Source of the DNA: Enterococcus phage VRE9_4
Sequence record: PP680570.1
Direction: 5' to 3' (one strand)
DNA length: 64,000 nt
The position numbers and the translations under genes are program-made. Below, in pieces: positions 16,098 through 59,678 of the stretch (position 1 is its first letter; each line of letters begins with the position of its first letter). The notes under the pieces are model-generated. The model saw only the letters and a list, made by a program, of their open reading frames with translations, searched no databases and was not told the DNA's origin.

Positions 16098-16137
16098 AAA
16101 CTGGGGAACTTGTGATAGTACCCAGTTTAATTTTTTT
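16098..16137 (+). terminator. Hairpin AAACTGGG...CCCAGTTT + T-run after 617-aa gene
   Basis: 8-bp stem, T7 run. Confidence 0.45.
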
Positions 16138-16183
16138 ATATAAAAGAGAAACTTTACATACCAAGAGCAAAGGAGAGAAAGTA

Positions 16184-18949
16184 ATGAATGAAAATATTAA
16201 CGTTAAGCAGTACCCTACTTCTTTTTTAGAAGAACTTTTTGAACATAATATTAGAGTAGTGCATACTAAGATACAGCTACTTAATTGGGACGAACAAGTT
16301 TTAAAAGAAATACAAGGTATTGTAAAAAGTGGAAGTTATAATGCTGATGGAACAAGTCGAGTAAGAAGAAATTTATCTCTAACTTTTAGTGTAAAAGATA
16401 GAGACGATGAATTGGTTTATAAATATCTAACCCCAGATAAAAAAATAAAATTATATATAGGATTAGAAAACCAAACTTCTCGTTATCAAGAAGATGAAAT
16501 TATATGGTTTAATATGGGGATCTTTATTTTAACCGAACCATCTTATTCTCATTCTGTTGATACAGCAACTATATCAATTAATGCGCAAGATAAAATGACT
16601 ATGCTAAATGGTACATTAGGAGGCCGCCTTCCAGCCCCAGTAAGTTTTGTAGAAAAAAGAAATGGTAAGAATTATTCCTTCTCTTGGAGAGATATTTTCT
16701 TAAGTGCAGCAGTGAACTTTGGGAATGAGAATCCAGCAAAGGTTATTATTGATTCTGTTCCAGATTATATAAATGAATATACGCAAGTAAAAAATGTGGC
16801 TGGATTAAAAGATAAATTTATTCATATTAATGCTCCTGGAGATGTAGATGGGGAAAGAATTATTACTAGAGCGTGGAGCCCAACTGTTCCAGAAACAGAA
16901 ATTAATTTTTCAAAGGGAGATAGAATCTATAAATTGCGCAGATTTGGTCCACCTGACCCTTCAGCAGGAACGGTAAGTACTCAAGAATCTTATCAAAAGA
17001 ATGTAAACGAACCATTAACTTCTATTTTTGAAGATATTGTAGAAGCTATGAGTAATACTCATGAATTTTTTTATACTCGTGATGGGGATTTAATGTTTCA
17101 GCCTATTAAGAACTATGTTAACGAAGTATTTGATCCTGAAAAAGATACAGATTTAGGATATTTTGCTTATGAATTAGATATGGATGATTTTATTCCTAAT
17201 TATTTAGGTCTTCCTTTTACCTATAATTTTGCCGATAAAAAGACTATTATTAGATATAATAACAATCCTAGTTATACAAATATCAAAAATGATTTTATAG
17301 CAACTAGAGAAACAGGAGAAATTTTAGAAATAGCAATAGACCATAAACCAACAATTAGAGAGATTAAGGAATGGTTTGTTGGAGTTGCAGAAGATTTTAA
17401 TATGGATTCTCCAGAAATGGATTTTTTAGCAAAAGATGGAAGAAGAAGGGAGCCATATAACCCTCAAACTAATACAGTTCCTTTTGAATTTAAAGAAGCC
17501 ACAGCAGGAAAACCAACACAATATATTGAAGTTCCTTTAGATAAAATTCCATGGCAAATTGGTTTAGGGCTTAAAAATTATTTTATTAGAAATATCTATG
17601 GCGCTTCTACTGCAAGAGTTCTTCCTAGATGGGGAAAAGAATGCGAATCAATGATTTTTAAATGGATTGCATCTGAAGATAAAAAAACTTTGTTGCCAAA
17701 TACTGGAATTTTTAATCCATCTTTTATTTCTGTCGGAACTCCATGGTTGGCAGGTTATCCTATGGCTGCAAGCGCAAACACAGAAAATGATGTTGAGTCT
17801 TTAGATAAACAGAATCCTATTTTTACCGATAAGGGTGATTCGGCTTATTGGACTTACTTTCTTGATATTATACCAACAGAATCTAAATTGGGCAAATATT
17901 CTATTGAATTAATTGGTAAACGTTCTATTGGAGTTTCTAATAAACAGGCGACTACCATTTTTAGAACAAACCCTAAAGAATTAATTGTTATTACAGAAAC
18001 AGAATTACAAGATTTAGGCGGAGATATGATATTAGATAATTTAAAAGCACAAGGAGAAGCTTATGCAGTAATTAGAGATATACAAGATCAATTCTTTATG
18101 CCAACAGCAATAACAAAAAATAAAAATGTTATGCCTTATAGTGCTATGGTTGGAGACCCAGGGCGGTTTGAACAATTACGGTATATGTTTGCAGAAGGTA
18201 ATGGAACAGTTCACGAATATCTAGCTGGTGGTAAACATACTGGTACTATTGGGGTAAATAAGAATATGCAAGATCAAGATAAACCTGGATATGTTACAAT
18301 TTCTGCTGGGGTATACACCAATCCAGTTACAAAAAGACAGTTTACTCAAACAGATTTTGCAACCATAAATACTCCTTTTGGTAGTGAAAAAGATTTAACG
18401 GAATATGGTTTTATTGCTTATCTATTGAATAAAAACAGTCGTTGCCCTGATAGTGGGAATCATAATTATTTTGCTGTAGTTAAAAATATAGGTACTCAAT
18501 GGTACTATGCTAAACAAAATAATGGAAAACCCACATGGACTAAATTTAATTGGGATAAAACTAATGACTTTTTGGTAGCAGTATTAAGTAAAACTGTTTA
18601 TAAAGGAAGTGCAGATTTCCCTGATTGGTCCAGTGGTAGAATTGATGATTTTCAAGAATTATTTAATATTAGAGATTCTAAAATGGACAATTTATTTACT
18701 ATTGATGGAGCGGTTGATTTATTTTCTTCTGTTAGAAATTTAATCTATCAACATACTAATACTTCAGATGTAGTAACAATAGATGTATTACCAGTCTATC
18801 ATTTAGAACCAAATACATTAATTTATGCAGAAGATGAAATTTCAAATATATCAGGAATGTTTATGATAACAGGATATTCTATACAATTAAATACAGAAGG
18901 AAGTCCAACAATGAATATTTCTGCAATACAAACAAATCCAGCTATATAA
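16184..18949 (+). CDS. Virion structural protein, about 921 aa
   Basis: Start revised from track 16112, which lies inside the upstream terminator hairpin, to ATG 16184 after AAGGAGAGAAAGTA. Last gene of the + late block, followed by a bidirectional terminator. Confidence 0.4.
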   Translation: MNENINVKQYPTSFLEELFEHNIRVVHTKIQLLNWDEQVLKEIQGIVKSGSYNADGTSRVRRNLSLTFSVKDRDDELVYKYLTPDKKIKLYIGLENQTSRYQEDEIIWFNMGIFILTEPSYSHSVDTATISINAQDKMTMLNGTLGGRLPAPVSFVEKRNGKNYSFSWRDIFLSAAVNFGNENPAKVIIDSVPDYINEYTQVKNVAGLKDKFIHINAPGDVDGERIITRAWSPTVPETEINFSKGDRIYKLRRFGPPDPSAGTVSTQESYQKNVNEPLTSIFEDIVEAMSNTHEFFYTRDGDLMFQPIKNYVNEVFDPEKDTDLGYFAYELDMDDFIPNYLGLPFTYNFADKKTIIRYNNNPSYTNIKNDFIATRETGEILEIAIDHKPTIREIKEWFVGVAEDFNMDSPEMDFLAKDGRRREPYNPQTNTVPFEFKEATAGKPTQYIEVPLDKIPWQIGLGLKNYFIRNIYGASTARVLPRWGKECESMIFKWIASEDKKTLLPNTGIFNPSFISVGTPWLAGYPMAASANTENDVESLDKQNPIFTDKGDSAYWTYFLDIIPTESKLGKYSIELIGKRSIGVSNKQATTIFRTNPKELIVITETELQDLGGDMILDNLKAQGEAYAVIRDIQDQFFMPTAITKNKNVMPYSAMVGDPGRFEQLRYMFAEGNGTVHEYLAGGKHTGTIGVNKNMQDQDKPGYVTISAGVYTNPVTKRQFTQTDFATINTPFGSEKDLTEYGFIAYLLNKNSRCPDSGNHNYFAVVKNIGTQWYYAKQNNGKPTWTKFNWDKTNDFLVAVLSKTVYKGSADFPDWSSGRIDDFQELFNIRDSKMDNLFTIDGAVDLFSSVRNLIYQHTNTSDVVTIDVLPVYHLEPNTLIYAEDEISNISGMFMITGYSIQLNTEGSPTMNISAIQTNPAI

Positions 18950-21427: not shown

Positions 21428-21456
21428 ATTATAACATATTATATATTATTTGTCAA
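21428..21456 (-). promoter_or_regulatory. Sigma-A-type promoter TTGACA-17-TGtTATAAT (kinase gene)
   Basis: Read on the - strand: TTGACAaataatatataatatgtTATAAT, followed by the conserved TAATTATAAAGTTAAA leader. Confidence 0.55.
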
Positions 21457-21521
21457 TCTTTCGTCAAGATCCCAGTTTTAAGCACTGAGACCTTTAACAT
21501 AAGATAATTAACCTCGTCGGA

Positions 21522-24500
21522 TTAAGCTGCTCGTTCTGTTTTCAGAACAATACTTCCATCATCACGAGTTTCAGTAATTAATCCAATTTTTGGAGTTGCT
21601 GTATCATTATATGCTCTAGGAATAAATTGATCGTCACGTCTAAAACCAGTAATAAATAGTTTGTTTCCTCTTTCAAAGAAAGATTTTTCTACAACAGTTT
21701 TCTTCCCTGTTGATGTTCTTTCTGAAATTTGTTTATCCCAGTAAGAAAAATCTCCTTTGTACATTTTAACTAAAACAACAGTTCCTTCTGGAGTTAAAAC
21801 ATCGATACTTGCTTTAACCTTATTTTTACCAATAATAGTTCCAACAATTCTATTTAATTTTAACTTAGAAAAACTTGCGTAAGGATTGATTTTTTGTGCC
21901 TCTCTTGGAAGAAGTTCAAAATTATCAATTCCATATCTATCTACATCCACACAATTTAATTCATGTTCTGTATAATAGAAGTTCATAGATTCCATTTCCC
22001 ATCTTGCATATGAATCGTGACCACCATATGAATCAAATAATTCTAACATTTCATCAAAAAATATTTCTTCTAATAAAGACTCTTTATTCTCTCTTAACCA
22101 ATTTCTAACAGTATCCATTTTTTTATCATAGAACTTACTCCATCTATCTCGACTCATCACAGTCCAATAACGATCCTCATCACTAAACGTTTCAATAAAT
22201 TCATCTAAACCAATCGAAGATAAAAAGTTTTGCGCCCGATCATCAAGTCTAATAATTTGTCCGCTCTTGGTTAGAACTTCATTTACATAGCGATTAAACT
22301 CATAAATTCGTTTTTCTTCTTGTAATGATTCAGGGAATCTATTAATTTTCATAACCAATGGGACTTGCGTCATTGTAAGATTTTTTCTAAGTCCTGTCAT
22401 CATTTTAGCATATTTTGCTAAAGTAATTTTTCTATCAGAGCTATCTATTTCTCTAAAAGCTCCTGCCTTAATTAATGTTAACATTTGCATTTTATTTGGG
22501 TTTGTCTTTCTGACAAAATCCGCTAAAGAACTAAATGGTCTTCCCTCGAAAATTTTCTGGATAAATTCATAACCAATCCCAGTTAATGGTCTTAAACCAT
22601 AAGAAATAAAATTACCTTCTACATTAGGAGAAAAGTTTGATTCTGATTTATTTATATCTACCATTTCTACTTTAATCCCATGTTTAATAGTATTTCCTAA
22701 CGCTACTGCCATTTTAGAATAGTCTGTTGAAGTTCCTGTTTCATCTCCTGAGTTGACAATCAAACAGCCACAGTTCCAATAAATAGATGGATAATGATTA
22801 AATAAGTTTAATTCTTGTAGTGCAATAATTGTATATCCAATTGTATGCAAAATTGAGAAACTATATCCCATTTGAACACTAACTGCTGAATCCCAAATAT
22901 AATGAACTGTTTCATTTGAGCATACTGCTTGTTCAAAAATTTTGGCTCTAAGTTCTGGAATTTTATCCATTAGTTTTTTACCAATAATTTTACGTGCTGC
23001 ATTAGCTTCTGTTTCTGTAAAATTACAAATGTTTTCATCCATTAAAATCAACATTAATTCTTCCTGTGTATTTGGAACTCCATAAGAAGATAAGAAATGT
23101 TTCTCTAAGATAGGAATTTCATCTGCTGGAATATTATATTTTTCTAATTCTTCGTACCAAAGTTGGATATTTTCTTTAAATCTTGCATACTTCTCTAGTG
23201 GCATTTCACCATTTTCAGTTGCCATAAGTCTCATTAATGAATTCAATGCTGCTGCATCTTTTACATCTTCTGGTTTACCCTTCCTTACAGCTTCTTTTCC
23301 TACAGGTGTATCAAGCTGAAAAATATCCAGAACTTTATTATCCCATGTTGGTTCCCACAATTCTTTACTATAATCTAATACATCAGGATGCAATGTATTA
23401 AAATATGTTTCTTTTAAAGAACCCTTCCATTCCATTCTATTGTCTTTAATCAATAAATCCATTGTTTGACGAATTTTATCTAAAGCTTCGATGGATAACA
23501 TATCCATTTTTAATGCTCCCATATCATCACTGTCATGATAATCCCATTGAGTTACTTCTAAGTCGTTAGGAGTTTTCATCATAGCATTAATATCTGTATA
23601 AGGATGATTAAAAATATAAACTCCTGAAGCATGAGAACCTCTACTTTTTACCATTCCTTCAATTGCTAAAGCTGTTTCTAAATAATTTTCGTATTTATTA
23701 ATTTCATTAATAAACTCAGAAACTGGTTTACGACCTTTTTCTGGATTCCCATAAACCATATCTTTTAAATTCCAATCAAAACCACGTTCATTTGGAATCA
23801 AACCACTTAAATAACTTGAAACATCATCACTTATACCAAGTCCTCGTGCAGCAGTAGCTAATGCTGATTTTGCTTTTTCGGTTCCAAAGGTTGCGATATT
23901 TAAAACTCTATCATGACCAAAAAAGTTTTTTAACGCCAATAAAATTTGTTCTCGTTTAGAACCTTGTGAATCTATATCAACGTCAGGTAATTCTGGACGA
24001 CTTTCAGCTAGATGTCTCCAACTCATATCTCCCACATATGGAATAGGATCTACTTGGGTAACGTCTAACAACCAGTTTGACATAAATCCCATAGCTGAAC
24101 CACGAGATACTCCAACTAATGAATCTCCTTCATCCCAAATTAATTCAATAATTTTTTGAGCTGTATTATAATAAGACGTCATAGGTTGTTTTAAACGTTC
24201 AGAAATTTTTACCAGTGTAGTAGCTTCAATTTCCAATTGTTCTAAATATCTTTCATTTAATACATTTCTAATTTCTAATTGGTTTAGACAAGTTCTACTC
24301 CAATATAAATCTTGGTCTTCGTCAGAATTTAGCAACATTGTTAAATATTTATATTTACTTAAATCAATATTATTATATGTTTTGCTTAATTCTGGTACAT
24401 CAACAGGAACATATGGAATTTCTTGTTCCTTAAACAAAGAATAATGTTTGATCCCACTTCTAATTTTTTCTAAGTTATCTAACATTTCCTGAAATTCTTC

Positions 24501-25376
24501 TTCTGAAAAATCTAATAAAAAGTATTCCTTAACTTGTTCAGGTGGCATCATATAAGCAGTATAATAGAAATCGTCAACTTCTCGCTCTGCTTGCTTACTA
24601 TTCAAATAAGCTTTATGAATTTCTCTATCTGCTTCAGTAAGATAATGACTGTCTGTACTAAATACAACTGGAACATTCATTGCCTTTCCAAGTTTCCAAA
24701 CTCTTCTATTTACATATCTTTGCTCTTCTGAAGTATTTGGAGCAATTTCTAAATAAAAATCTTCTTCGCCAAAAACTTCTTGATTCCATAAAACAAAATC
24801 AACAATTTTTTGTTTTTCTTCTAAGATTTTTTCTTGATTAATTTTTTCTCCAAATGGAACTTCTTCTGCCGCTTTAATTTTCAAAAAAGCTTGAGCTTCG
24901 AAACTTCCAAGACAAGCTGTAGAAGATACAATATGTCCTTTTCCATTTTCCTGTTCCATAATTTCTTTTACTTGTTCACGAGTAATTGGAGTTCGTTGTA
25001 AGCCTCTATCCCAATAACTATTTTCCCAAGCTTTAGAAGACAACATTCTTAAAATTTTATGTCCTTTTTTGTCTTTTGCAATCAATAAATGATGATAATA
25101 TTTTTGTCCCATTTCTAAATCTTCGACTAAATAAATTTCATCTCCAAAACCAATTGTAAAAGATTCATGGTCTATACGACCTTCTTTTTCTAATTTATCT
25201 CTATAATGCATTAATTGAGCGTGACCAGATAATCCTTCGTGGTCTGTTAAAACATAACCGCTTAAACCTAAATCTAAAGCATAATCAACTGATTGTTTAA
25301 TATCATTAATTGAATCAGCGAATCCTAATAATGCATTACTAAAACTACTATGATTATGAATTGAATAGTATCCCAA
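21522..25376 (-). CDS. DNA polymerase III alpha subunit (PHP domain + DnaE-type polymerase core)
   Basis: N-terminal PHP motifs (YSIHNHSSFS, LTDHEG), 1284 aa, uninterrupted. Confidence 0.85.
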   Translation of the reverse strand: MGYYSIHNHSSFSNALLGFADSINDIKQSVDYALDLGLSGYVLTDHEGLSGHAQLMHYRDKLEKEGRIDHESFTIGFGDEIYLVEDLEMGQKYYHHLLIAKDKKGHKILRMLSSKAWENSYWDRGLQRTPITREQVKEIMEQENGKGHIVSSTACLGSFEAQAFLKIKAAEEVPFGEKINQEKILEEKQKIVDFVLWNQEVFGEEDFYLEIAPNTSEEQRYVNRRVWKLGKAMNVPVVFSTDSHYLTEADREIHKAYLNSKQAEREVDDFYYTAYMMPPEQVKEYFLLDFSEEEFQEMLDNLEKIRSGIKHYSLFKEQEIPYVPVDVPELSKTYNNIDLSKYKYLTMLLNSDEDQDLYWSRTCLNQLEIRNVLNERYLEQLEIEATTLVKISERLKQPMTSYYNTAQKIIELIWDEGDSLVGVSRGSAMGFMSNWLLDVTQVDPIPYVGDMSWRHLAESRPELPDVDIDSQGSKREQILLALKNFFGHDRVLNIATFGTEKAKSALATAARGLGISDDVSSYLSGLIPNERGFDWNLKDMVYGNPEKGRKPVSEFINEINKYENYLETALAIEGMVKSRGSHASGVYIFNHPYTDINAMMKTPNDLEVTQWDYHDSDDMGALKMDMLSIEALDKIRQTMDLLIKDNRMEWKGSLKETYFNTLHPDVLDYSKELWEPTWDNKVLDIFQLDTPVGKEAVRKGKPEDVKDAAALNSLMRLMATENGEMPLEKYARFKENIQLWYEELEKYNIPADEIPILEKHFLSSYGVPNTQEELMLILMDENICNFTETEANAARKIIGKKLMDKIPELRAKIFEQAVCSNETVHYIWDSAVSVQMGYSFSILHTIGYTIIALQELNLFNHYPSIYWNCGCLIVNSGDETGTSTDYSKMAVALGNTIKHGIKVEMVDINKSESNFSPNVEGNFISYGLRPLTGIGYEFIQKIFEGRPFSSLADFVRKTNPNKMQMLTLIKAGAFREIDSSDRKITLAKYAKMMTGLRKNLTMTQVPLVMKINRFPESLQEEKRIYEFNRYVNEVLTKSGQIIRLDDRAQNFLSSIGLDEFIETFSDEDRYWTVMSRDRWSKFYDKKMDTVRNWLRENKESLLEEIFFDEMLELFDSYGGHDSYARWEMESMNFYYTEHELNCVDVDRYGIDNFELLPREAQKINPYASFSKLKLNRIVGTIIGKNKVKASIDVLTPEGTVVLVKMYKGDFSYWDKQISERTSTGKKTVVEKSFFERGNKLFITGFRRDDQFIPRAYNDTATPKIGLITETRDDGSIVLKTERAA

Positions 25377-25411
25377 TAAATATAACTCCTTTCATAATTC
25401 CTTATATATTA

Positions 25412-25440
25412 ATTATATCATTTAAAATATAAAAAGTCAA
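25412..25440 (-). promoter_or_regulatory. Promoter TTGACT-17-TGaTATAAT (DNA polymerase gene); -35 overlaps tdk terminator stem
   Basis: TTGACTttttatattttaaatgaTATAAT on the - strand. Confidence 0.6.
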
Positions 25441-25458
25441 GTAAAATAATTACTTGAC
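25431..25458 (-). terminator. tdk terminator: GTCAAGTAA-aataa-TTACTTGAC + U-run; stop codon inside arm; 3' arm doubles as -35 of pol promoter
   Basis: Perfect 9-bp palindrome flanked by A5. Confidence 0.65.
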
Positions 25459-26022
25459 CAATTCATTATAGTTAAAATAACATTTTCTACATACAGGAAC
25501 ATATTCGTTATCTCCAATTAAAATTTGTTCACCTCTATAAACAGCTTCTCCATTAATTGTACGTAAATTCATAGTTGCTTTTTTATCGCATAATGTACAT
25601 ACAGTTTTTAACTCTTCTAATTTATCTGCAAATTCTAATAATGCCTTAGAACCTTCAAATAAATTATTTTGAAAATCATTTTTTAATCCCCAACAGAGAA
25701 CAGGAATATTGCCCTCATCTACTACTCCAGCTAAGGTAATTACCTGTTCTCTTGATAAAAACTGGGATTCATCCACTAAGATAGCATGAACCTTTTCTTT
25801 TTTAGCTTTTTCTAAAATTTCTTCTCTGCTATCATTTAAGTATTCTGCCTCAATATTAAAGCCAGTTCTAGAAACGATCTTTTTAAAACCGCTTCTAGTA
25901 TCTAAATCAGAAGTATAAATTAATACATTTTTGCCTTGTTGAGCATAATTATAAGCAGTTGTAATTAAAGATAAACTTTTTCCTGAGTTCATAACTCCAT
26001 ATTTAAAATATAATTTTGCCAT
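25450..26022 (-). CDS. tdk: Thymidine kinase
   Basis: MAKLYFKYGVMNSGKS P-loop start, C-terminal CxxC...CxxC zinc ribbon. ATG 26022 with GGGAGAA RBS preferred over the track TTG 26037. Confidence 0.8.
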   Translation of the reverse strand: MAKLYFKYGVMNSGKSLSLITTAYNYAQQGKNVLIYTSDLDTRSGFKKIVSRTGFNIEAEYLNDSREEILEKAKKEKVHAILVDESQFLSREQVITLAGVVDEGNIPVLCWGLKNDFQNNLFEGSKALLEFADKLEELKTVCTLCDKKATMNLRTINGEAVYRGEQILIGDNEYVPVCRKCYFNYNELVK

Positions 26023-26024
26023 TT

Positions 26025-27206
26025 CTATTTCTCCCAAATTCCACTATTTTTATCATAAGCTAATACTAATTTTTCCGAAGCCCTAGTAACCATTGTATAT
26101 AACCATTTTCTATGATTTTTTCCATTTAATCGTTCTTCAATTCCTAAAACTTTAGAGTATTCACTACCTTGAGATTTATGTGTAGTAATACAATATCCAT
26201 AATCAATATAATTAACTCTAGCATCACCTTTTGCAAACTGATTTACAATATAAGATTTTTGGTTTTCTTTAATAAAAGGAAGCATATCATACTTGATAGA
26301 AAACTCTCCACCACCAAATTCTGGAATAAAACGAACTCGAGCGATCTCAATATCTTTTCCCATTGCGTTCCCCATTAATTTTTCACTTTTAAATACGCCA
26401 CTAGAAAAATTAACTTCACCTAACATACCATTAATAAGAGGAAATCCTTCTTCATTTAAAATATCCCAATTATTATTAGTTACAATAATTTTATCTCCCT
26501 CTTGAGGAGTAGGTGAAACAAAACCCTTGGCTAAACGGATTTCATCGTTGTAAAGTTTTCTGGTTGCGTTTCTTCCACACAAAACTTGGTCTGCCCATAA
26601 AAGCATACCTACAGAAATCTCTTCTTTTGGAACCATCTTAACAAAATCATCAGAAAAAGGTTTTATAACCTCCCCTTCTCGAATCATTTTAGATAGTTGA
26701 ATAATACTATTCCCTTCCTCTTGGCGCATGATTTCATCTAAGAAAATGTGAGGATTTTTTAACATACCATTATCTGCTCCTACAGGAGGTAGCTGCCCTG
26801 GATCTCCAAGCATTATAATATGAATACCTAAATCTGCTATATCTTTTAATAGGTCTTCTGGAACCATTGAAATCTCATCTATTAAAATTAATTTAATTCC
26901 TTGATAGTTTTCAATAGGAAGCTTTTGATGAATAAAGTTATTATTAATTTTGATAGATTTGTATCGCAATTTGTGTAAGGTTTGTGCTGCTGGAAATCCT
27001 GTTTGTTGAAGACGATAAGCTGCCTTACCTGTAAAAGCTCCAACCATATATTGTAATGGTGATAGCTCTAGTGCATTAATAATTTTTTTTGCTAAAAAAG
27101 TTTTACCTGTTCCAGCAAAACCAGCGATTGTAGTATAACGTTCTCCACTTTTATATCGTTCTACAGCAATTTCTAAACCTTGTTTTTGTTTACTTGTTAA
27201 TGACAT
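26025..27206 (-). CDS. RecD/Dda-like SF1B DNA helicase
   Basis: Walker A GFAGTGKTF, Walker B LILIDEISM, motif 'TTHKSQGSEY'. Confidence 0.7.
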   Translation of the reverse strand: MSLTSKQKQGLEIAVERYKSGERYTTIAGFAGTGKTFLAKKIINALELSPLQYMVGAFTGKAAYRLQQTGFPAAQTLHKLRYKSIKINNNFIHQKLPIENYQGIKLILIDEISMVPEDLLKDIADLGIHIIMLGDPGQLPPVGADNGMLKNPHIFLDEIMRQEEGNSIIQLSKMIREGEVIKPFSDDFVKMVPKEEISVGMLLWADQVLCGRNATRKLYNDEIRLAKGFVSPTPQEGDKIIVTNNNWDILNEEGFPLINGMLGEVNFSSGVFKSEKLMGNAMGKDIEIARVRFIPEFGGGEFSIKYDMLPFIKENQKSYIVNQFAKGDARVNYIDYGYCITTHKSQGSEYSKVLGIEERLNGKNHRKWLYTMVTRASEKLVLAYDKNSGIWEK

Positions 27207-27238
27207 TTAATCATTCCTTTTTTATTCATTATATTTAT

Positions 27239-27267
27239 ATTATATCATTATAAAAATAAAAAGTCAA
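27239..27267 (-). promoter_or_regulatory. Promoter TTGACT-17-TGaTATAAT (RecD-like helicase gene); -35 in terminator palindrome
   Basis: TTGACTttttatttttataatgaTATAAT. Confidence 0.6.
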
Positions 27268-27290
27268 GTTATTTACTTGACTTTTTATTT
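27259..27290. terminator. Palindromic terminator AAGTCAAGT-tattt-ACTTGACTT flanked by A/T runs (bidirectional); contains -35 of helicase promoter
   Basis: 9-bp stem, T-runs on both sides. Confidence 0.6.
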
Positions 27291-27397
27291 CGTTTAGTTT
27301 TAATTTGTTCCCAAGCAATTAAAGCGTTTTTCATTTGACCTGGGTTACGAGCTAAATATTCTGAAACAAATTCTTTTTTTGTTACTTTGCGTTTCAT
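27269..27397 (-). CDS. Small basic ORF (42 aa); stop codon lies in the loop of a terminator hairpin, so it may not be a real gene
   Basis: RBS AAGGAGTGATAGATATG. Not in the ORF track. Confidence 0.2.
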   Translation of the reverse strand: MKRKVTKKEFVSEYLARNPGQMKNALIAWEQIKTKRNKKSSK

Positions 27398-27546
27398 ATC
27401 TATCACTCCTTAAATTTATATGTAGGGGGGGGTGGTTTTAGGAAAAAGAAAATAGGCAGAAGGTAAATATGGCTCAATTCAAAAAATAGCATGAACCATA
27501 TTTTTCTCCTAGATTAGCGTCCGTAGACGATAAAAATCCTTTAATA

Positions 27547-29286
27547 TTAGAAAATGTATTTTTGCGCTGATTTCAATTCTAAATCTGCAACAAACATTTG
27601 TAGGAACGTACGACCTCTAAAAGTACTCATCTTAATAGTTCCAACTACATCAATTTTTGATTGCTGGTTTTTCATAAGTTTTTGTGCTGTTTCAGTGCTA
27701 ACACCCTTAAACTTAATAAACTCCAGTCCTCCAGCAGAAAATGTTATCTTATGATTATCAAATTCTCCACCCACAACTATATCATCTTTTTTAACAGGAA
27801 TATCTCTTAAAACAAAAGTAGGCTCTTCCAAACCTTTTCCCCAAAATGTAGCATAACGAGTAATTTCTGTTAAATTTTCTTTAGACATTTGTTGCCAAGA
27901 AATATCAAAATCTACAGAATATATTGGTTCAAAGACAATTTCTGATAATTGTTTATTGAAATATTCTACAATTTCATCCTTTTTGTCAGCAGCAAAGGCA
28001 AATCCGTGAGCTCCTTCGTGACCTTCTGCAAATTCAAATAATCCACTTTCTTGCTCAAATCGTTTTAATTCTGGTAAGTCAGATTTATCATCTCCACGAG
28101 CCGACCCACCAAAAAAAGTTTTTCCATCTTTTTCAAAATACGTTCCTACTAAAGTTGGCTTTTTATATTTTGAAACAAATTGATTGGCAATTAATCCTGT
28201 AAAGGTTTTTGGAAATTCATTTTTAGTATCTAAAATTAGAATCTGGTTGTCAGTTAATTTATTTTCTTCAATTTGAGCTTCTAATGAATTAAAGGCATTA
28301 TCTCTCAATCTATCTTGTCGAGCTTTAATATTATTCATTTTCCGAACAACTGCTTCATGGAATACTTCTGTATCTCCCTCTTTAGCTCCACGTTTTGTCG
28401 AGGGTACATCATAAGGTTTATCACTAACCATAGCTTTTGTAACTTCTTTTTTCTCGTCCATTGTTCCTACTCGTGTTACTGCATTAATCATTGGGACAAT
28501 AGAAAAAGATAAACCAATTGGTGTTACCTGTCCTCCAAGATTAAATGACTTAGCCTTATATAATGCTTTTAAAAAAGTATTATGAATATTTCTCATTCCT
28601 TGCTGAACAATATAAATTGTTTCTAAAGTATTAATTTCGATCATATCTCCTACAATCCCAATAGCAGCAAGATCATAATATTTTTCTGAGTGGTCGAAGC
28701 CATACATTTTATCATACAACGCAGCAAACTTTAAACAAACTCCTGCACCTGATAATTTCTTATTAGGATAATCATCTAAAGAAATATTTACCATTGTAGC
28801 ATATTCTGAAAATTTAGGTGCATCGTGGTGATCCAAAATTACAATAGGTATATTCAACTTTTCTACAATATACTTATGAACATCATATTCATTCGAAGAA
28901 CAGTCAGGGGCTATAATTAAATCTACATTATGTTCCCCCATAATATCTTCCACTGTTTTTACAGGAATTCCATGTTCTTTGTTCTCTTGGAAAACAATTA
29001 TTATTCTATTTGTTATTTCTTCTTTATAACAATCTTTTAAATAATTGTAGACAATAGCTGTAGATGTATAACCATCTGCATCAGGGTCCTGAACTAATAA
29101 TATTTTATCTTTTGAATTTACGATCTTGTCGTGAATAATTTCAGCAACCTCTTTCAAATTTTTTATTAAAAGAGGATCGTGTAACGCTGAATCATTTAAT
29201 CTAAAAATCTTATCTGGGTTTATTCCTCTATTTATGAAAATGTTAATAATGTTGTCATCATTTTTTCCAATTAGTTGCGTTCTCAA
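27547..29286 (-). CDS. DHH-family phosphoesterase (RecJ-like exonuclease / NrnA-like)
   Basis: Motifs 'VQDPDADG', 'IAPDCSS', 'ILDHHD' (DHH), and a C-terminal DHHA1-like GG...G segment. Confidence 0.6.
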   Translation of the reverse strand: MRTQLIGKNDDNIINIFINRGINPDKIFRLNDSALHDPLLIKNLKEVAEIIHDKIVNSKDKILLVQDPDADGYTSTAIVYNYLKDCYKEEITNRIIIVFQENKEHGIPVKTVEDIMGEHNVDLIIAPDCSSNEYDVHKYIVEKLNIPIVILDHHDAPKFSEYATMVNISLDDYPNKKLSGAGVCLKFAALYDKMYGFDHSEKYYDLAAIGIVGDMIEINTLETIYIVQQGMRNIHNTFLKALYKAKSFNLGGQVTPIGLSFSIVPMINAVTRVGTMDEKKEVTKAMVSDKPYDVPSTKRGAKEGDTEVFHEAVVRKMNNIKARQDRLRDNAFNSLEAQIEENKLTDNQILILDTKNEFPKTFTGLIANQFVSKYKKPTLVGTYFEKDGKTFFGGSARGDDKSDLPELKRFEQESGLFEFAEGHEGAHGFAFAADKKDEIVEYFNKQLSEIVFEPIYSVDFDISWQQMSKENLTEITRYATFWGKGLEEPTFVLRDIPVKKDDIVVGGEFDNHKITFSAGGLEFIKFKGVSTETAQKLMKNQQSKIDVVGTIKMSTFRGRTFLQMFVADLELKSAQKYIF

Positions 29287-30440
29287 TATATATCATACTC
29301 CTCTTCATCTGTTCCTATGGAATCCCATAGCTCTAATTTTTCTACAAAATTTTCATCTATCTCTTTGTATGTTTTTCGTTCTCTATATAATTCTGCAAAA
29401 ACTTCAAAACCACAATCTACTGGAGAATCTTTATATCCTGAAATCATATTAGTATCTAAAATAAAACTTATTTTAATACCATCTTCATTAGTTCCAAAAC
29501 GTTCTTGTATTGTTTTAAAAATTCCTATTAAGTTATCATATTCTCTATCATACTTCATAGATTGAAATTGTCTATCAAAAGCAAAAATAATTTCTTCTAC
29601 ACCTAATTTTTTTAATGCTTCATATTGATGCCGTGAAAAGTGCATACCAAATGCTGCTACACCAATATTTTTCTTTGGAGATAATAAATCATCCATTTTC
29701 ATGACCGATTTCTCTCCCTCAAAAACAATGGCTTTTCTTTCTCTTCTAATATTATTAGCATTAAAAAATAAACCGAATAAATAAAATGATAGTGGCGAAG
29801 AATACAGTATCCCTTCACGTTCAACGGGTCTATATTTTCCATATCGTTCTATCATTTCGCTATTAGCTATTCTTTGTCGTATACCTAATAGATTTCCTTC
29901 TTCATCTAAATGAGGAAACATTAAACCCGTTGTTGCATAATTATATCTGATATTATATTTATGTTGAGTTTCTGCTGATATACCTTCTCGTTCCCAATCA
30001 TTTACAATAATTCTAGGATAACGTAAATAAGGTTTTTTGTCATAAAACATAAAGCTTGGTTCTTGATATTCAATATCTAAATCATCATTATGCAACATAT
30101 CATTATCGCCTAAAGTCATAAACTCTTGTGATTGAATATAAATATCAATAGCCTCTTCTAATAAAAGTTCTTCATGATATTCATTCATATACATTTTAGA
30201 TAATAATTCAAAAATATCAAATCTACCACAACCAGTGTAACAATTAAATAATTTTGTATTATCATAATAATAAAGTTTATGACTGCCCTCACCTTTATGA
30301 TTATGACAGACAGTTTCAAAGACTAATTGGTGTTCATCAACCCAATTACCTTGAATACCTTGTCCTACCAAAAAATCATATACTTGTTGGATAGACATTC
30401 CAGCTTTTATAGCATTCTTATCACGTCCATATTCTGCCAT
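29283..30440 (-). CDS. DnaG-like DNA primase (zinc-binding domain + TOPRIM)
   Basis: 'CHNHKGEGSHKLYYY...NCYTGCG' zinc ribbon. 'IVFEGEKSVMKMDD' TOPRIM glutamate motif. Confidence 0.7.
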   Translation of the reverse strand: MAEYGRDKNAIKAGMSIQQVYDFLVGQGIQGNWVDEHQLVFETVCHNHKGEGSHKLYYYDNTKLFNCYTGCGRFDIFELLSKMYMNEYHEELLLEEAIDIYIQSQEFMTLGDNDMLHNDDLDIEYQEPSFMFYDKKPYLRYPRIIVNDWEREGISAETQHKYNIRYNYATTGLMFPHLDEEGNLLGIRQRIANSEMIERYGKYRPVEREGILYSSPLSFYLFGLFFNANNIRRERKAIVFEGEKSVMKMDDLLSPKKNIGVAAFGMHFSRHQYEALKKLGVEEIIFAFDRQFQSMKYDREYDNLIGIFKTIQERFGTNEDGIKISFILDTNMISGYKDSPVDCGFEVFAELYRERKTYKEIDENFVEKLELWDSIGTDEEEYDIY

Positions 30441-30482
30441 ATACCTACAACCTACTTTTTTAATTATTTTTTATACATTTAT

Positions 30483-30511
30483 ATTATATCATAATAAAAA
30501 TAAAAAGTCAA
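30483..30511 (-). promoter_or_regulatory. Promoter TTGACT-17-TGaTATAAT (primase gene); -35 in terminator palindrome
   Basis: TTGACTttttatttttattatgaTATAAT. Confidence 0.6.
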
Positions 30512-30533
30512 GCTAATTGCTTGACTTTAAAAA
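30499..30533 (-). terminator. Helicase-gene terminator AAAGTCAAGC-taatt-GCTTGACTTT; stop codon in arm; -35 of primase promoter inside
   Basis: 10-bp palindrome. Confidence 0.6.
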
Positions 30534-32122
30534 GCACTTTTTCGATCATCTACCGTTTGGTTACGACGCTTAACATTTTTTTCTGCTGCTTTTTGAACCT
30601 TAATAGAAGTAGCATCAATTCCAATAGGAATATTATTACTATCTGTAATAAACAAACCTTTACATCTACAAGTTCCCAAATCTACGTCGCACCACAATTT
30701 AACACCAGCATATTTACCTCGTCGTACTTTATAAAAGCTAATAATATAGTTTGGACGAAAATATCCTTGACTTACAAATGTTTCTACAGCTTGTTCATCA
30801 ATAGGTCTAATTTTAACTGCAATCATTCCTACATCAATACGATCCGCAATAGCTTTAGATCCTCGAAGCAAATTTTGATTAAGTTCTCCTTCAAGATAAT
30901 CTCCATTCACCTGAGTTCCTGACTCAATAAAAATTCCTAGTTGGTTTGCTAAATCTTTTAATTTAGTTGACAACATAAATAATACTTGGTCTTCACGTAA
31001 TTTCATACCATTTGAAATGGAAGCAATCTCTGCTAAAAATTTCATAGATGTATGAATATAATCAAAACGGAAATATTTAACATCATGTTCTCGATAATAT
31101 TTTCTAATAGTAGCTTCAATTTCTGTAACAGAGAAATCTGAAATAATTTCAAAATATAACGGAGCCTCAGACATAATTCTGGCTCCTTCTCTTAATACTT
31201 TTTCTTGGTCTTCATCAAATTTACCATCTAAAATGATATCTTCAGGAATTCCTGTAAGAAATGCTAATGCCATTGTTTGGCACTCTTCTGAATCTAACTC
31301 TGTAGAAATAAATAAAGAACCTTCTGCTTCTCCGTTGTCAACCCAAGCTTGTTTATGTTGGTCATAAATTACAGGAAAGGCAGAATAACAAGCTCGAGAC
31401 ATCATAATACGAGACTTCCCATTTCCTGTTGGAGCTGAGTACAAATAGAATTTACCTAACCGATCTCCACGAGTTATCGTATCCATCATTGTAATTGGAG
31501 AAGGTGAACCAAAATCTGGGGCTTCTTTAAAAGAATCAATTAAATTTAATAATCCTTCACCAGCTTGAATACTTTCAGAAGCTACATTACTTGCAGAAGT
31601 ATCCATAATATGTTGAATATTATCTGAAATTTCATTTGCCATATCCTTTAAAGAAGTATGTTCAAACCAATTTTGTTGGTAAGCAATTAATTCTTGATTT
31701 TCTGTATCCCAATCATAAAACTGTTTTACAGATACGCCATTTTTCTCAAGAGAGCGAAGTAGAGTTAATTTTTTAATTGTATCTAGGGCTGGCTCAAAAG
31801 CTGTTGGATCTCCTACTTGTGATAGTTTATCAAAGTAATATTCACCTTGTCGAGCATATTTCCCTTCAGCAATTTCTATCTCTTCATCAAATAAAGTATT
31901 AATTTGCGGACGACCTTGAATATAGCTTTCTATTACACCTAAGCTAAATTTTGGATGTCCCATTGAATATAAATTGTACATAATTGCATAAGAGACTTTT
32001 TGTAAACTATCAACAAAATCAGCTTCATTTACCGCAGCCATCTTAGGATGATCGAATAATGTTGGTTGTACATATAAAGCTCCTAATAACATATTAGCAA
32101 TGTCTTTACGATAATACTTCAT
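30527..32122 (-). CDS. Replicative DNA helicase (DnaB/gp41-like, RecA-fold)
   Basis: Walker A 'YSAPTGNGKSRIMMS'. Adjacent to primase. Confidence 0.7.
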   Translation of the reverse strand: MKYYRKDIANMLLGALYVQPTLFDHPKMAAVNEADFVDSLQKVSYAIMYNLYSMGHPKFSLGVIESYIQGRPQINTLFDEEIEIAEGKYARQGEYYFDKLSQVGDPTAFEPALDTIKKLTLLRSLEKNGVSVKQFYDWDTENQELIAYQQNWFEHTSLKDMANEISDNIQHIMDTSASNVASESIQAGEGLLNLIDSFKEAPDFGSPSPITMMDTITRGDRLGKFYLYSAPTGNGKSRIMMSRACYSAFPVIYDQHKQAWVDNGEAEGSLFISTELDSEECQTMALAFLTGIPEDIILDGKFDEDQEKVLREGARIMSEAPLYFEIISDFSVTEIEATIRKYYREHDVKYFRFDYIHTSMKFLAEIASISNGMKLREDQVLFMLSTKLKDLANQLGIFIESGTQVNGDYLEGELNQNLLRGSKAIADRIDVGMIAVKIRPIDEQAVETFVSQGYFRPNYIISFYKVRRGKYAGVKLWCDVDLGTCRCKGLFITDSNNIPIGIDATSIKVQKAAEKNVKRRNQTVDDRKSAF

Positions 32123-38237: not shown

Positions 38238-38266
38238 ATTATATCATAATAAATAAGGAATTTCAA
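38238..38266 (-). promoter_or_regulatory. Promoter TTGAAA-17-TGaTATAAT overlapping nrdE terminator loop
   Basis: TTGAAAttccttatttattatgaTATAAT. Confidence 0.5.
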
Positions 38267-38280
38267 ATAAGAAATTCCTT
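38245..38280 (-). terminator. nrdE terminator AAGGAATTTC-aaataa-GAAATTCCTT
   Basis: 10-bp stem. Confidence 0.5.
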
Positions 38281-38294
38281 ATTTTAATTTTATA

Positions 38295-40724
38295 TTAAGC
38301 TGAGCAAGCAACACAATCATCTACACGAGAAGCGTCATGAGAACGAGTATAGTAAGAAGATTTAATTCCTCTAGACCAAACTTCCATATGAAGACGAAGT
38401 AAGTTTTTAACCTTAATATCATCTAAGATATATAAATTAAATGAAGTAGATTGATCTACCCATTTTTGACGTTCTGCGTTGTGGAGAATAGCCCACATAT
38501 GACCCAAATCTCTCTCTCCTTCAAACTCCATTAACATAGTTGGTTTATAATAGAACCATGTTTCTAAACTTAATTCTGGAGCAATAACAGGTGTACGAGA
38601 ATCTTTCTTACCATCAAAAAAGATAGTGTCGTAAACTGTGTCTGCCGCTGCAGTAGAACCAGCTAACAAGGAAGTAGAACCTGTTGGAGCAACTGCTCTT
38701 AAATATCCATTTCGCATACCTTTTTTAGCTTTGTAATAAACCTCTGCTCGATAAGCATCCTCAATACGATCTTGACAAACTCCTCGACGATCCAACCATT
38801 CTCCTGTATTCCATTGACTTCCCTCAAATAAAGGATAACTTCCTTTTTCTTGAGCTAAATCTGCCGACGCCTCAATGATATTTAGCATGATTCTTTCTTC
38901 TAGCCGAGCAATTAATTTAGTTGCTTCAACTGAATCAAAATGAATTCCTTGTTTAGCCAAAACTGCTGCAATACCTTGTTCACCAATCCCAATAGCACGA
39001 TAACGATTATTTGTATATTGGGCTTGTAAAACAGGTAAATTATTAACAGTGATAACTGCATCAGTAGCACGAACTTGAGTACGTAAAACCTGTCTTAATT
39101 TTTCAAATGCTTTAACATCATCGCTGGTTTGTGGTCCTTCGACAGAAAGGGTAAAATCTTTCAAAACATTGTTAAGAACAATAGAAGATAAATTACATGT
39201 TACAAAATCTCCACTTTGTTTATGGACAATAATTTCTCCTAGTTCATTAATAGTTTCTTTAGTCATAATTGTAGGAGATTGATTTTGTACAATCTCAGAA
39301 CACAAATTAGAGCAGTATACCATTCCTGCATGATTATTAGGATTATCTCTATTTGCAGTATCCCGATAGAACATATAAGGCAAACCAGTTTCTAGTTGAG
39401 AACGCATAATTTTTTTCATAATTTCAATAGCTGGCAAACGTTTCTTTAAATGTAAATCGTTATTATCTACAGCCTTAAAATAGTGATAAGAGAAAGCGTG
39501 ACGATCAGGATCTAGTGGTGATTTCCCATCCCATTTTTCTTTATCGTAGAAATCTTCCAGAGAAAAACCTAATACTTTTTTCACTTCGTGAGGGTCAAAT
39601 AAATACCAGTCTCCTCGTTTTTCTACTTGTTGCATAAATAAATCAGGAATAGAAGCACCTAAAAATAGTTCATGCGCTCGTTTAGATAGATCTCCTGTAT
39701 TTAAACGTAACTCTAAGAAATCTTCTATATCATAATGCCAAACATCCAAATATGCTGCAATAGCACCACTGCGAACTCCTAGTTGGTCTACCGAAACAGC
39801 AGTATTATTTAATTGTTTAAGCCAACCAACAATACCTCCTGCAGCACCGACATTTCCTCTAATATCTGAACCAGCAGCACGAATTTTACCTACATAAATA
39901 CCAATTCCTCCACCAGCCTTGCTTAGGCGAGCAGCATCTGTATTGTCATCATAGATCCCTTGTAAGCTATCATCTGTTGTTAAAATAAAGCAACTAGAAA
40001 ATTGTGCATCTGGTCGTCCAGCATTTGCAAATGTTGGAGTAGCCATAGTAACTTCTTGTTTAGATAGTACATCATATAATTCTTTTACATGTTGTAGTCT
40101 ATCTTGTGTTTCTTCTCTTAATAAAGAAATCGCAATTGTCATATAACGTTCTTGTGGTAATTCAAATACTGAACGTCCTTTGTCTTTAGCTCGAATAAGA
40201 TATCTTTCAGACATATTATATAAACCAGCATAAGTCAAAAGTAAATCTCGTTCTGGCTTAATATATTTACCTAATTCTTGAATTTCTTCTTTAGTATATT
40301 TTACAAAAATTTCTGGTTCAATAAGACCTTGTTCACCAAGAGAAGAAAGAAGACCAAAATAGTCGCCATATTTTGAATCAACATCATAGCTTCTATTTTT
40401 TGAAGCTCGTTTATACAACGAATTTAATAATGCTCTAGCTGCAACAAATTCAAATTGGGTATTGCCTAATTTATCAAAATCCATCATTTCCCCATCTTTA
40501 AAGTCCATGATTCTATCAATTGCATTTTGAATAATAACATCATTGATATCTCGGAAATCAATCTCTTGTCTACCCTGAATTTGTTTAATAACGCCCTTCT
40601 TATATGCTTCAAACGTATCTGGATGAACATCCAGTCCTTCCTTAAAGCTATCTAATTTATTAATTAATCGTTGTGGATCAAATTCCAATTTTCTCAATCC
40701 ATTATCTTTTACTACTACTGTCAA
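38295..40724 (-). CDS. nrdE: Ribonucleotide reductase class I alpha subunit (NrdE-type) with N-terminal ATP-cone-like extension
   Basis: Active-site 'NLCSEI', C-terminal 'DDCVACSA' CxxC tail. N-terminus 'VVKDNGLRKLEFDPQRLINKL' matches the ATP-cone consensus. Confidence 0.85.
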   Translation of the reverse strand: MTVVVKDNGLRKLEFDPQRLINKLDSFKEGLDVHPDTFEAYKKGVIKQIQGRQEIDFRDINDVIIQNAIDRIMDFKDGEMMDFDKLGNTQFEFVAARALLNSLYKRASKNRSYDVDSKYGDYFGLLSSLGEQGLIEPEIFVKYTKEEIQELGKYIKPERDLLLTYAGLYNMSERYLIRAKDKGRSVFELPQERYMTIAISLLREETQDRLQHVKELYDVLSKQEVTMATPTFANAGRPDAQFSSCFILTTDDSLQGIYDDNTDAARLSKAGGGIGIYVGKIRAAGSDIRGNVGAAGGIVGWLKQLNNTAVSVDQLGVRSGAIAAYLDVWHYDIEDFLELRLNTGDLSKRAHELFLGASIPDLFMQQVEKRGDWYLFDPHEVKKVLGFSLEDFYDKEKWDGKSPLDPDRHAFSYHYFKAVDNNDLHLKKRLPAIEIMKKIMRSQLETGLPYMFYRDTANRDNPNNHAGMVYCSNLCSEIVQNQSPTIMTKETINELGEIIVHKQSGDFVTCNLSSIVLNNVLKDFTLSVEGPQTSDDVKAFEKLRQVLRTQVRATDAVITVNNLPVLQAQYTNNRYRAIGIGEQGIAAVLAKQGIHFDSVEATKLIARLEERIMLNIIEASADLAQEKGSYPLFEGSQWNTGEWLDRRGVCQDRIEDAYRAEVYYKAKKGMRNGYLRAVAPTGSTSLLAGSTAAADTVYDTIFFDGKKDSRTPVIAPELSLETWFYYKPTMLMEFEGERDLGHMWAILHNAERQKWVDQSTSFNLYILDDIKVKNLLRLHMEVWSRGIKSSYYTRSHDASRVDDCVACSA

Positions 40725-41300: not shown

Positions 41301-41353
41301 TCATTATAAAATAAAAATCCTTACTATATAAATTATAACATAGTAAGGATTTT
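41301..41353 (-). terminator. Apf-gene terminator, 14-bp stem AAAATCCTTACTAT/ATAGTAAGGATTTT
   Basis: Long perfect stem with a U-rich 3' side on the - strand. Confidence 0.6.
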
Positions 41354-41360
41354 TTGTCAA
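41332..41360 (-). promoter_or_regulatory. Promoter TTGACA-17-TATAAT embedded in the Apf-gene terminator hairpin
   Basis: TTGACAaaaaatccttactatgtTATAAT. Confidence 0.55.
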
Positions 41361-42963: not shown

Positions 42964-42992
42964 ATTATATCATTTTTAAATAAGTTTTTCAA
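42964..42992 (-). promoter_or_regulatory. Promoter TTGAAA-17-TGaTATAAT (185-aa gene)
   Basis: TTGAAAaacttatttaaaaatgaTATAAT. Confidence 0.5.
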
Positions 42993-42999
42993 ATTAAAT

Positions 43000-43030
43000 T
43001 AAAAAAGGCTGAGAAAAACTCAGTCTTTTT
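43000..43030 (-). terminator. Short hairpin (CTGAG-aaaaa-CTCAG) + U6 after the coiled-coil gene
   Basis: 5-6-bp stem, T6. Confidence 0.4.
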
Positions 43031-43040
43031 TAATTAGAAA

Positions 43041-50497: not shown

Positions 50498-50526
50498 ATT
50501 ATATCATCTAATATATAAAAATTCAA
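50498..50526 (-). promoter_or_regulatory. Promoter TTGAAT-17-TGaTATAAT + TAATTATAAGTTAAA leader (80-aa winged-helix gene); -35 overlaps upstream terminator
   Basis: TTGAATttttatatattagatgaTATAAT. Confidence 0.55.
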
Positions 50527-50557
50527 ATAAAAAATCCCAATCGTCTAGATTGGGATT
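50523..50557 (-). terminator. Collagen-like-gene terminator AATCCCAATC-gtcta-GATTGGGATT
   Basis: 10-bp stem with a U-rich tract. Confidence 0.6.
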
Positions 50558-59616: not shown

Positions 59617-59623
59617 TTTTATA

Positions 59624-59662
59624 AAATTCAACTATTGGATTTCCTTTAGTTGAATTTTTTTA
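59624..59662 (+). terminator. Terminator AAATTCAACTA-...-TAGTTGAATTT + T-run after XRE gene
   Basis: 11-bp stem. Confidence 0.6.
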
Positions 59663-59678
59663 TTTAAAATTATATAAT
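59650..59678 (+). promoter_or_regulatory. Promoter TTGAAT-17-TATAAT for the RNase H locus; -35 is 3' arm of the upstream terminator
   Basis: TTGAATttttttatttaaaattaTATAAT. Confidence 0.5.

Follow-up and report, generated by a model that had tools for sequence, protein, structure and literature searches.

Enterococcus phage VRE9_4 was analysed over a stretch of 64,000 nucleotides of record PP680570.1 (hereafter the window), and positions 25,412 to 30,533 of this stretch hold three compact intergenic elements in which a predicted transcription terminator is fused to the predicted promoter of the next gene. We refer to these elements as m1 (25412-25459), m2 (27239-27290) and m3 (30483-30528); all three are on the minus strand, which carries every gene at these sites. 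In the order of transcription, the genes code for a DnaB-like helicase (30527-32122), a 385-amino acid primase-like protein (29283-30440), a RecJ-like exonuclease (27547-29286), the product of a 42-amino acid open reading frame (ORF; 27269-27397, PHROG 36796), a RecD/Dda-like helicase (26025-27206), thymidine kinase (tdk, 25450-26037) and a Pol III alpha-type polymerase (21522-25376). The two helicases, the thymidine kinase and the polymerase were assigned with Pfam, and the primase-like protein, which has no Pfam match, through PHROG 47 (DNA primase, E value 7e-37). The original prediction for this DNA had placed the elements downstream of tdk, of the gene region of the RecD-like helicase and of the DnaB-like helicase, and upstream of the polymerase, recD-like and primase genes, respectively. 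The Pfam and PHROG 47 assignments bear out this gene context, with m2 located after the RecJ-like exonuclease gene and the 42-amino acid ORF and before the RecD/Dda-like helicase gene.

Each module fills the space between two genes from the stop codon of the first to the Shine-Dalgarno sequence and start codon of the second, with stop-to-start gaps of 73, 62 and 86 nt at m1, m2 and m3, respectively. The m1 hairpin (25435..25459; GGTCAAGTAA-ttatt-TTACTTGACT; -13.5 kcal/mol, z-score -5.8) is followed, directly after TTACTTGACT, by the T-run TTTTATATTTT (25434-25424), and its 3' arm contains the -35 box (25440-25435) of a TTGACT-17-TGaTATAAT promoter (25412..25440) whose predicted target is the polymerase gene with its TTG start at 25376. 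The m2 hairpin (27254..27290; -18 kcal/mol, z-score -8.8) has the core AAAAAGTCAAGT-aaata-ACTTGACTTTTT at 27286-27258 and a stem that can be extended to 17 pairs; it appears to be bidirectional, as A- and T-tracts flank it on both sides and its plus strand was scored too in the terminator scan. The m2 promoter (27239..27267), of the same form and again with its -35 box in the 3' arm of the hairpin, is predicted to serve the RecD/Dda-like helicase gene (ATG at 27206) and tdk. At m3, the hairpin (30504..30528; AAAGTCAAGC-aatta-GCTTGACTTT; -12.8 kcal/mol, z-score -3.0) is followed by the T-run TTATTTTTAT, and the promoter (30483..30511), likewise of the TTGACT-17-TGaTATAAT form with its -35 box in the 3' arm, is predicted to serve the primase-like gene (ATG at 30440) and the gene of the RecJ-like exonuclease. 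The T-runs of m2 and m3 lie at about 27250-27258 and 30494-30503. The three modules therefore exist as proposed, and the promoter sequence claimed to follow each hairpin is present at all of them, matching the consensus at 11 of 12 positions together with the TG of the extended -10. Between these near-consensus promoters and the next start codon there are 36-80 nt, with a ribosome-binding site in every case. The hairpins in turn carry the features of Rho-independent terminators, namely 3-4 G-C pairs, a 5-nt loop, a T-rich tail and a position at the end of a gene on its coding strand.

Two details of the earlier description needed correction. The palindrome had been written as GTCAAG-N5-CTTGAC, and this literal pattern has no match at all, even when 3 mismatches are allowed. 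The two hexamers are spaced by 11, 7 and 7 nt at m1, m2 and m3, respectively; what is constant across the three is the 5-nt loop, which is held because each stem is lengthened on its inner side by 1-3 compensating pairs that differ between the copies (TAA/TTA, T/A and C/G). It had also been stated that the stop codon of the upstream gene lies in the hairpin arm in each case. This holds for tdk, whose stop codon (25452-25450) is within the 5' arm of m1, but the positions at m2 and m3 are different: the stop codon at m2 (27271-27269) belongs to the 42-amino acid ORF and not to a helicase, and straddles the loop and the 3' arm, while the stop codon of the DnaB-like helicase gene (30529-30527) has two bases in common with m3, the first two of its 5' arm.

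The fused arrangement is far from what chance would produce. A 43-nt pattern covering m2 and m3 has 2 exact matches, against 0 in 100 shuffles, and the window holds 11 sites of the promoter pattern TTGACA(at least 5 of 6)-17-TGnTATAAT, where a first-order Markov model predicts 0.05. We also compared the 32 nt upstream of each strong promoter-like site with shuffles of the same 32 nt for their pairing with the -35 box. The real sequence beat 300 of 300 shuffles at m1, m2 and m3 and at three further promoters, 38266, 59650 (plus strand) and 21467, and most other strong promoters show no such pairing. The hairpins of m1-m3 range from -12.8 to -18 kcal/mol with fold z-scores from -3.0 to -8.8, and all three are listed by a terminator scan, which found 16 terminator-like sites in the 19-39 kb interval against 5.7 +/- 2.4 expected. 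Two other measures were discarded. The count of GTCAAG-N7-CTTGAC at 2 mismatches was uninformative (2 found against 1.37 expected in shuffles) and was replaced by the 43-nt pattern and the upstream-pairing shuffle test, and a hairpin scan tolerant of many G.U pairs returned AT-rich noise, so that the energy-based test was used instead. The observation itself is real and has firm statistical backing.

Only six Enterococcus phages, each about 138-142 kb long (H1, EF1, EF5 and VRE9_1 to VRE9_3), match the window. Its region 25000-31000 aligns with them over the full length at 96-97% identity, and the core region holding m1-m3 is covered to 98-100%, also at 96-97% identity. Conservation of the modules extends to all eight genomes or contigs of relatives that were compared, with no indel at any of the three. 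Aligned differences were read from VRE9_1, EF5, H1 and two IMG/VR contigs, and the only stem changes among these are two G.U wobble substitutions, both in VRE9_1. One is an A-to-G change in the 5' arm of m3 (GTCAGG), by which an A-U pair becomes G.U; the other is an A-to-G change in the 3' arm of m2 (GCTTGAC for ACTTGAC), by which a U-A pair becomes U.G. Both keep the pairing and leave the -35 box untouched. The loop and closing pair of m3 (30513-30519) read CAATTAG in the window and CTAATTG, the exact reverse complement, in all five relatives. This difference is a small inversion located between the two arms, and it shows past activity of the palindrome at the DNA level.

More distant comparisons are limited by a gap in the available relatives. 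Among GenBank phages, relatives of the DnaB-like helicase are either at least 95% or less than 60% identical, the best of the latter being SPbeta-like Bacillus phages at about 32%; the replication proteins in general have their nearest counterparts in SPbeta-like and other Firmicutes phages, with which they are about 30% identical. IMG/VR yielded two near-identical contigs and relatives at 30-59% DnaB identity. In the distant relatives (DnaB 30-41% identical), DnaB is coupled directly to the next gene without a cassette, so the m3 cassette is specific to this lineage. Because intermediate relatives are absent from both GenBank phages and IMG/VR and the distant ones have no cassette at this place, the covariation evidence comes from paralogous cassettes and not from orthologues. 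Four distant relatives from IMG/VR, with DnaB about 34-38% identical, have a terminator T-run that leads straight into a -35 box (CCACACTTTT-TTGATA) about 600 nt upstream of DnaB. A tight juxtaposition of terminator and promoter is therefore not confined to this lineage.

The 150-nt gap between the RecJ-like exonuclease gene and the 42-amino acid ORF, upstream of m2, contains a C8 homopolymer at about 27424-27431 (minus strand accaCCCCCCCCtaca), which differs among the relatives by one C fewer, a C-to-T change or an additional base. Searching Rfam returned no family at the gathering threshold in the whole window, this gap included, so that no known RNA element accounts for the hairpins or for the odd gap at 27.3-27.5 kb.

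The same logic had been claimed for four further sites in the window (38238-38280, 41301-41360, 50498-50557 and 59624-59678). All four exist, but the geometry of the hairpin varies from one to the next. After the gene of the ribonucleotide reductase large subunit, a cassette on the minus strand (38238..38284) has a 14-bp hairpin (AAATAAGGAATTTC-ttattt-GAAATTCCTTATTT; -16.3 kcal/mol, z-score -5.1); the -35 box TTGAAA at 38266 straddles its loop and 3' arm, and the 3' arm occupies the promoter spacer before TGaTATAAT. In the cassette at 41314..41360 (minus strand; AAAAATCCTTACTAT...ATAGTAAGGATTTTT; -15.2 kcal/mol, z-score -4.9), the promoter, a 12/12 match TTGACA-17-TGtTATAAT, is inside the hairpin, which encloses the -10 box in its loop and has its T-run downstream. 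The hairpin of the cassette at 50498..50557 (minus strand; AATCCCAATC-tagac-GATTGGGATT; -13.8 kcal/mol, z-score -4.2) has a T-run that leads into TTGAAT-17-TGaTATAAT, hairpin and T-run ending 6 nt short of the -35 box at 50526. Following a 76-amino acid helix-turn-helix (HTH) regulator-like gene, a plus-strand cassette (59623..59678; AAAATTCAACTA-(12 nt)-TAGTTGAATTTT; -14.8 kcal/mol, z-score -5.9) carries the -35 box TTGAAT at 59650 in its 3' arm, followed by a 17-nt spacer and TATAAT. Two more cassettes were found on the minus strand. One follows the polymerase gene (21428..21494) and has a hairpin, AAGGTCTCAG...CTGGGATCTT (-16 kcal/mol, z-score -4.8), that ends on the first bases of TTGACG; it holds two overlapping promoters at 21467 and 21456, the latter a 12/12 match of the form TTGACA-17-TGtTATAAT, and no T-run stands behind the stem. 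The other (42964..43035) has a separate terminator, GACTGAG-ttttt-CTCAGCC with T6 (-14.5 kcal/mol, z-score -6.1), which ends 9 nt upstream of TTGAAA-17-TGaTATAAT at 42992. T-rich DNA also follows the -35 box at the hairpin-free promoters 43805, 35396 and 53529. The promoter consensus runs beyond the -10 box as TATAAT-TAATTATAAAGTTAA at 43805, 35396, 21456 and 50526 (minus strand) and at 53529 (plus strand), which suggests a conserved initial transcribed sequence or a leader that may be common to many units. The plus-strand structural genes of the window have almost no consensus promoters.

We also took a census of the complete genome of VRE9_1, whose early region (124-131 kb) corresponds to DNA outside the window. 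Composite cassettes are common genome-wide, in several geometries. On the minus strand of the early region, the -35 box is in a hairpin loop at 11 of 21 promoter-like sites, typically as AAAGGGTT-gaca-AACCCTTT (the GGGTT-gaca-AACCC type) followed by a T-rich spacer. VRE9_1, H1 and VRE9_3 together have 30 such -35-in-loop cassettes with 22 distinct stems, and in a shuffled-flank control a -35-in-loop hairpin formed in 0.5% of trials. Of the covariation-type evidence, this diversity of stems around an invariant -35 box argues best for selection of the hairpins as structures. At least 11 cassettes are packed into about 7 kb of the VRE9_1 early region, beside ORFans. This hyperplastic region shares only 46-51% of its sequence with EF1, EF5 and H1, in 8-11 pieces, against 97% identity in the replication region, and most of its homology breakpoints lie no more than about 50 nt from a cassette. 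In one clean swap, flanked by two cassettes, an ORFan of VRE9_1 gives way to an unrelated ORFan in H1; of the two cassettes, the upstream one is conserved, its stem with one extra G-C pair, and the downstream one has been exchanged along with the gene.

The replication region and its surroundings behave differently. The 31-56 kb part of the window is essentially fully common to the relatives, and comparison with these revealed no cassette-bounded indels inside the window; the indels found are homing-endonuclease insertions. At 38291-38304, VRE9_1 has a 535-bp insertion with a free-standing HNH endonuclease gene between the stop codon of the ribonucleotide reductase large-subunit gene and the hairpin of the cassette, which is itself conserved in VRE9_1 and is not duplicated beside the insertion. 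A second VRE9_1 insertion, of about 1 kb and including a homing endonuclease gene, is at 56099-56107 inside nrdD (54061-56193), and looks like an intron or mobile insertion in this anaerobic ribonucleotide reductase gene. For EF1 and EF5, the annotation splits the class Ia reductase alpha gene into three pieces, and HNH genes are covered by the same match. These two phages also have about 960 bp more in the region of the primase-like gene, which is annotated as several shorter ORFs.

All of the sequence tests fit the original proposal of a terminator joined to the next promoter of the sigma-70/sigma-A type: the hairpins with their T-runs, the promoters, the enrichment and the conservation. We therefore consider it likely that m1-m3 are compact bifunctional cassettes, terminator and promoter in one, that are read by the sigma-A RNA polymerase of the host. 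The host polymerase arriving from the upstream gene would meet a terminator of hairpin and U-run whose stem starts inside the stop codon or directly at it. As DNA, the 3' arm of this hairpin would serve as the -35 box TTGACT of the next promoter, and the T-run of the terminator would make up the upstream half of its AT-rich 17-nt spacer; the extended -10 box (TGnTATAAT), a short leader and the ribosome-binding site would then follow. Because stem and promoter overlap, the upstream transcript is predicted to end about 20-30 nt before the next start site, and polymerase would initiate independently at the overlapping promoter. In this way, the replication cluster would be split into insulated and separately driven units: DnaB; the primase-like gene, the RecJ-like gene and the small ORF; the RecD/Dda-like helicase gene and tdk; the polymerase gene; and the genes downstream of it. 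The overlap probably arose cheaply, since the promoters of this phage tend to combine TTGAC with a T-run even where there is no hairpin, and only a complementary 5' arm would be needed to make a terminator.

The cassettes also fit a scheme in which consensus sigma-A promoters would serve the early and replication genes, because VRE9_1 has a sigma factor gene and consensus promoters are nearly absent from the plus-strand structural genes. The annotated sigma factor gene of VRE9_1 is at 134768-135787, and it would fit late genes (the plus-strand structural block, 39-18949) being read from promoters that are not of the sigma-A type.

We infer both the occurrence and the efficiency of termination and initiation at the cassettes from the sequence, and several points weigh against the interpretation as fused terminators and promoters. 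The stems are AT-rich and have only 3-4 G-C pairs, so termination may be partial, and the hairpin of the cassette after the polymerase gene (21428-21494), which has no T-run, departs from the canonical terminator. A polymerase sitting on a strong downstream promoter would cover the DNA of the terminator, so that the two functions could interfere with each other. The distant relatives without a cassette after DnaB indicate that it is unnecessary for this gene order. Finally, in contig IMGVR_UViG_3300045988_171352 (about 4852-4880, homologous to 30483-30511) one TTTTTA unit of the m3 spacer is absent, which leaves TTGACT-11 nt-TATAAT with the hairpin intact; either the promoter would be dispensable or dead there, or the contig may contain an assembly error.

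Four other explanations were weighed. In the first, which we judge unlikely, the two signals are functionally coupled: termination would be of the recycling type, and the released polymerase would be recaptured at the promoter under it, so that flux would pass on from unit to unit. In vitro work has demonstrated recycling termination with reinitiation at the nearest promoter by E. coli RNA polymerase, and the authors of that study argued that closeness of terminator and promoter favours reinitiation (PMC11347151). This precedent supports such coupling, as does the predicted release point, which lies inside the next promoter at m1-m3. On the other hand, the hairpins take varying positions (upstream of the promoter, on the -35 box, in the spacer or around the -10 box), which speaks against one finely tuned geometry, and compaction and insulation explain the data without it.

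The early region lends itself to a different explanation, in which the cassettes would be mainly recombination modules, their repeats of about 50-100 bp serving as crossover points and the three GTCAAG copies being products of copying. The low fraction of early sequence common to phages that are otherwise 97% identical is in favour of this, as are the breakpoints close to cassettes, the clean ORFan swap between VRE9_1 and H1, and the extension of the promoter consensus well beyond the -10 box. Nearly every intergenic gap of the early region holds a cassette, however, so that breakpoints near cassettes cannot be separated from breakpoints that are simply intergenic. Moreover, m1-m3 lie in the conserved core, where the eight genomes or contigs show no indel; recombination among them would remove replication genes, such as those of the helicase, thymidine kinase, primase or RecJ-like nuclease, and the indels of the window are insertions of homing endonucleases, not exchanges of cassettes. 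We regard this explanation as quite improbable.

An equally doubtful proposal is that the hairpins are not terminators, and are instead structures that protect or process 3' ends, or attenuators blocked by ribosomes at the stop codons, with transcription mostly reading through. The position of the stop codons in or at the 5' arm, where a terminating ribosome would cover this arm, is compatible with this proposal, and so are the AT-rich stems and the hairpin without a T-run after the polymerase gene. Against it, m1-m3 and most other cassettes have a canonical T-run directly behind the stem, and there would be little use for a full consensus promoter after each hairpin if most transcription read through.

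The least probable of the four, and in our view very unlikely, is the suggestion in the original prediction that the shared GTCAAG...CTTGAC palindrome is an operator, by which a dimeric phage or host DNA-binding protein seated on the -35 box would co-regulate the three replication-gene promoters. It could draw on the restriction of the palindrome to m1-m3 in the window and to the homologous sites in the complete 140 kb genome of VRE9_1, on the location of all three copies within 5 kb in the replication cluster, on the 75% identity of m2 and m3 over the 20 nt upstream of the -35 box, well above that of other promoter pairs, and on HTH regulator-like genes in the window (e.g., 59386-59616). Yet the half-sites are not at a fixed distance, although compensating pairs hold the hairpin loop at 5 nt, GTCAAG is merely the complement of the -35 box plus one base (CTTGAC), the two VRE9_1 substitutions break the symmetry of the DNA while keeping the RNA pairing as G.U, and cassettes of the same design elsewhere have unrelated stems. 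Promoter similarity had also been considered as a sign of a recent duplication of m2 and m3; this was rejected, since palindrome-free promoter pairs are equally similar in spacer and leader, and only the upstream 20 nt of m2 and m3 stand out against other pairs.

Fused terminator-promoter cassettes can be compared with three known arrangements. Ordinary Rho-independent terminators followed by sigma-A promoters, as in compact Firmicutes phages, likewise have a hairpin and U-run at the end of a gene and a consensus promoter next to it. The difference is that here the -35 box itself lies in the 3' arm of the stem or in the loop, so that one sequence would provide both signals; in the sampled distant IMG/VR relatives, the -35 box is in a stem or loop at 1 of 11 loci. 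Phage morons (discussed in PMC2839356) are also autonomous units bounded by a promoter and a terminator, but they are single inserted genes whose regulatory sequences are neither repeated nor shared, whereas the cassettes recur as a family that also divides core replication genes from one another. A paper applying ONT-cappable-seq to a Pseudomonas phage contained nothing on terminator-promoter overlap.

The closest parallel is the promoter-early stem-loop (PeSL) cassette of T4-like phages, which consists of a strong sigma-70-like promoter and a stem-loop terminator (Arbiol et al. 2010, PMC2839356; Comeau et al. 2014, PMC4122927). Promoter and terminator activity have been demonstrated experimentally for PeSLs, as has the formation of mini-circles (PMC2839356; PMC4122927); for the Enterococcus cassettes, promoter and terminator activity are predicted. 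Both are intergenic and are built from the same succession of parts: a stop codon, AT-rich DNA, a stem-loop, a strong host-type promoter, a Shine-Dalgarno sequence and a start codon. The stem-loop of PeSLs may be upstream of the promoter, overlap the -35 box, lie in the spacer, overlap the -10 box or be downstream (PMC2839356); the first four of these positions are found in the window, and all five in VRE9_1. PeSLs are concentrated in hyperplastic regions and have been implicated in the shuffling of ORFans (PMC2839356; PMC4122927), and in the phage group, though not at m1-m3, the Enterococcus cassettes too are present in many copies per genome and dense in the ORFan-rich and variable early region. 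There they also stand beside gene replacements in close relatives, a position that may simply reflect their location in the gaps between genes. The phages are nevertheless of unrelated lineages, ours being a roughly 140 kb Enterococcus phage with SPbeta-like replication genes and a Gram-positive host, and the stems are GTCAAG/CTTGAC and GGGTT/AACCC in place of the polyG/polyC of PeSLs. Given the unrelated lineage and the different stems, we regard the likeness as analogy or convergence and not as homology. A further difference is that m1-m3 stand in conserved replication genes outside any hyperplastic region and have no associated indels.

By this comparison, the design of the cassettes is one already described in PeSLs, and they are a new example of it in an unrelated Gram-positive phage. 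A speculative extension, which we hold to be improbable as a whole, is that large virulent phages dependent on the host polymerase have converged on such cassettes as a general device. In this Gram-positive phage, they might have two roles, as has been proposed for PeSLs: as portable ends for swapping ORFans by recombination, and as hand-over points at which the promoter recaptures the polymerase released on top of it. The GTCAAG trio would then be a sub-family copied not long ago, by which an ancestral operon of DnaB and primase was broken up into separate units. The elements of 50-60 nt could be useful as compact insulating parts for the engineering of phages or Firmicutes, but would bring only a modest practical gain, as the principle has already been described. 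If confirmed by transcript mapping, the cassettes would provide a ready map of early and replication transcription units in poorly studied Enterococcus phages that are therapeutic candidates. Confirmation would also extend the PeSL concept beyond T4-like coliphages and suggest that terminator and promoter parts made in one piece have arisen convergently.

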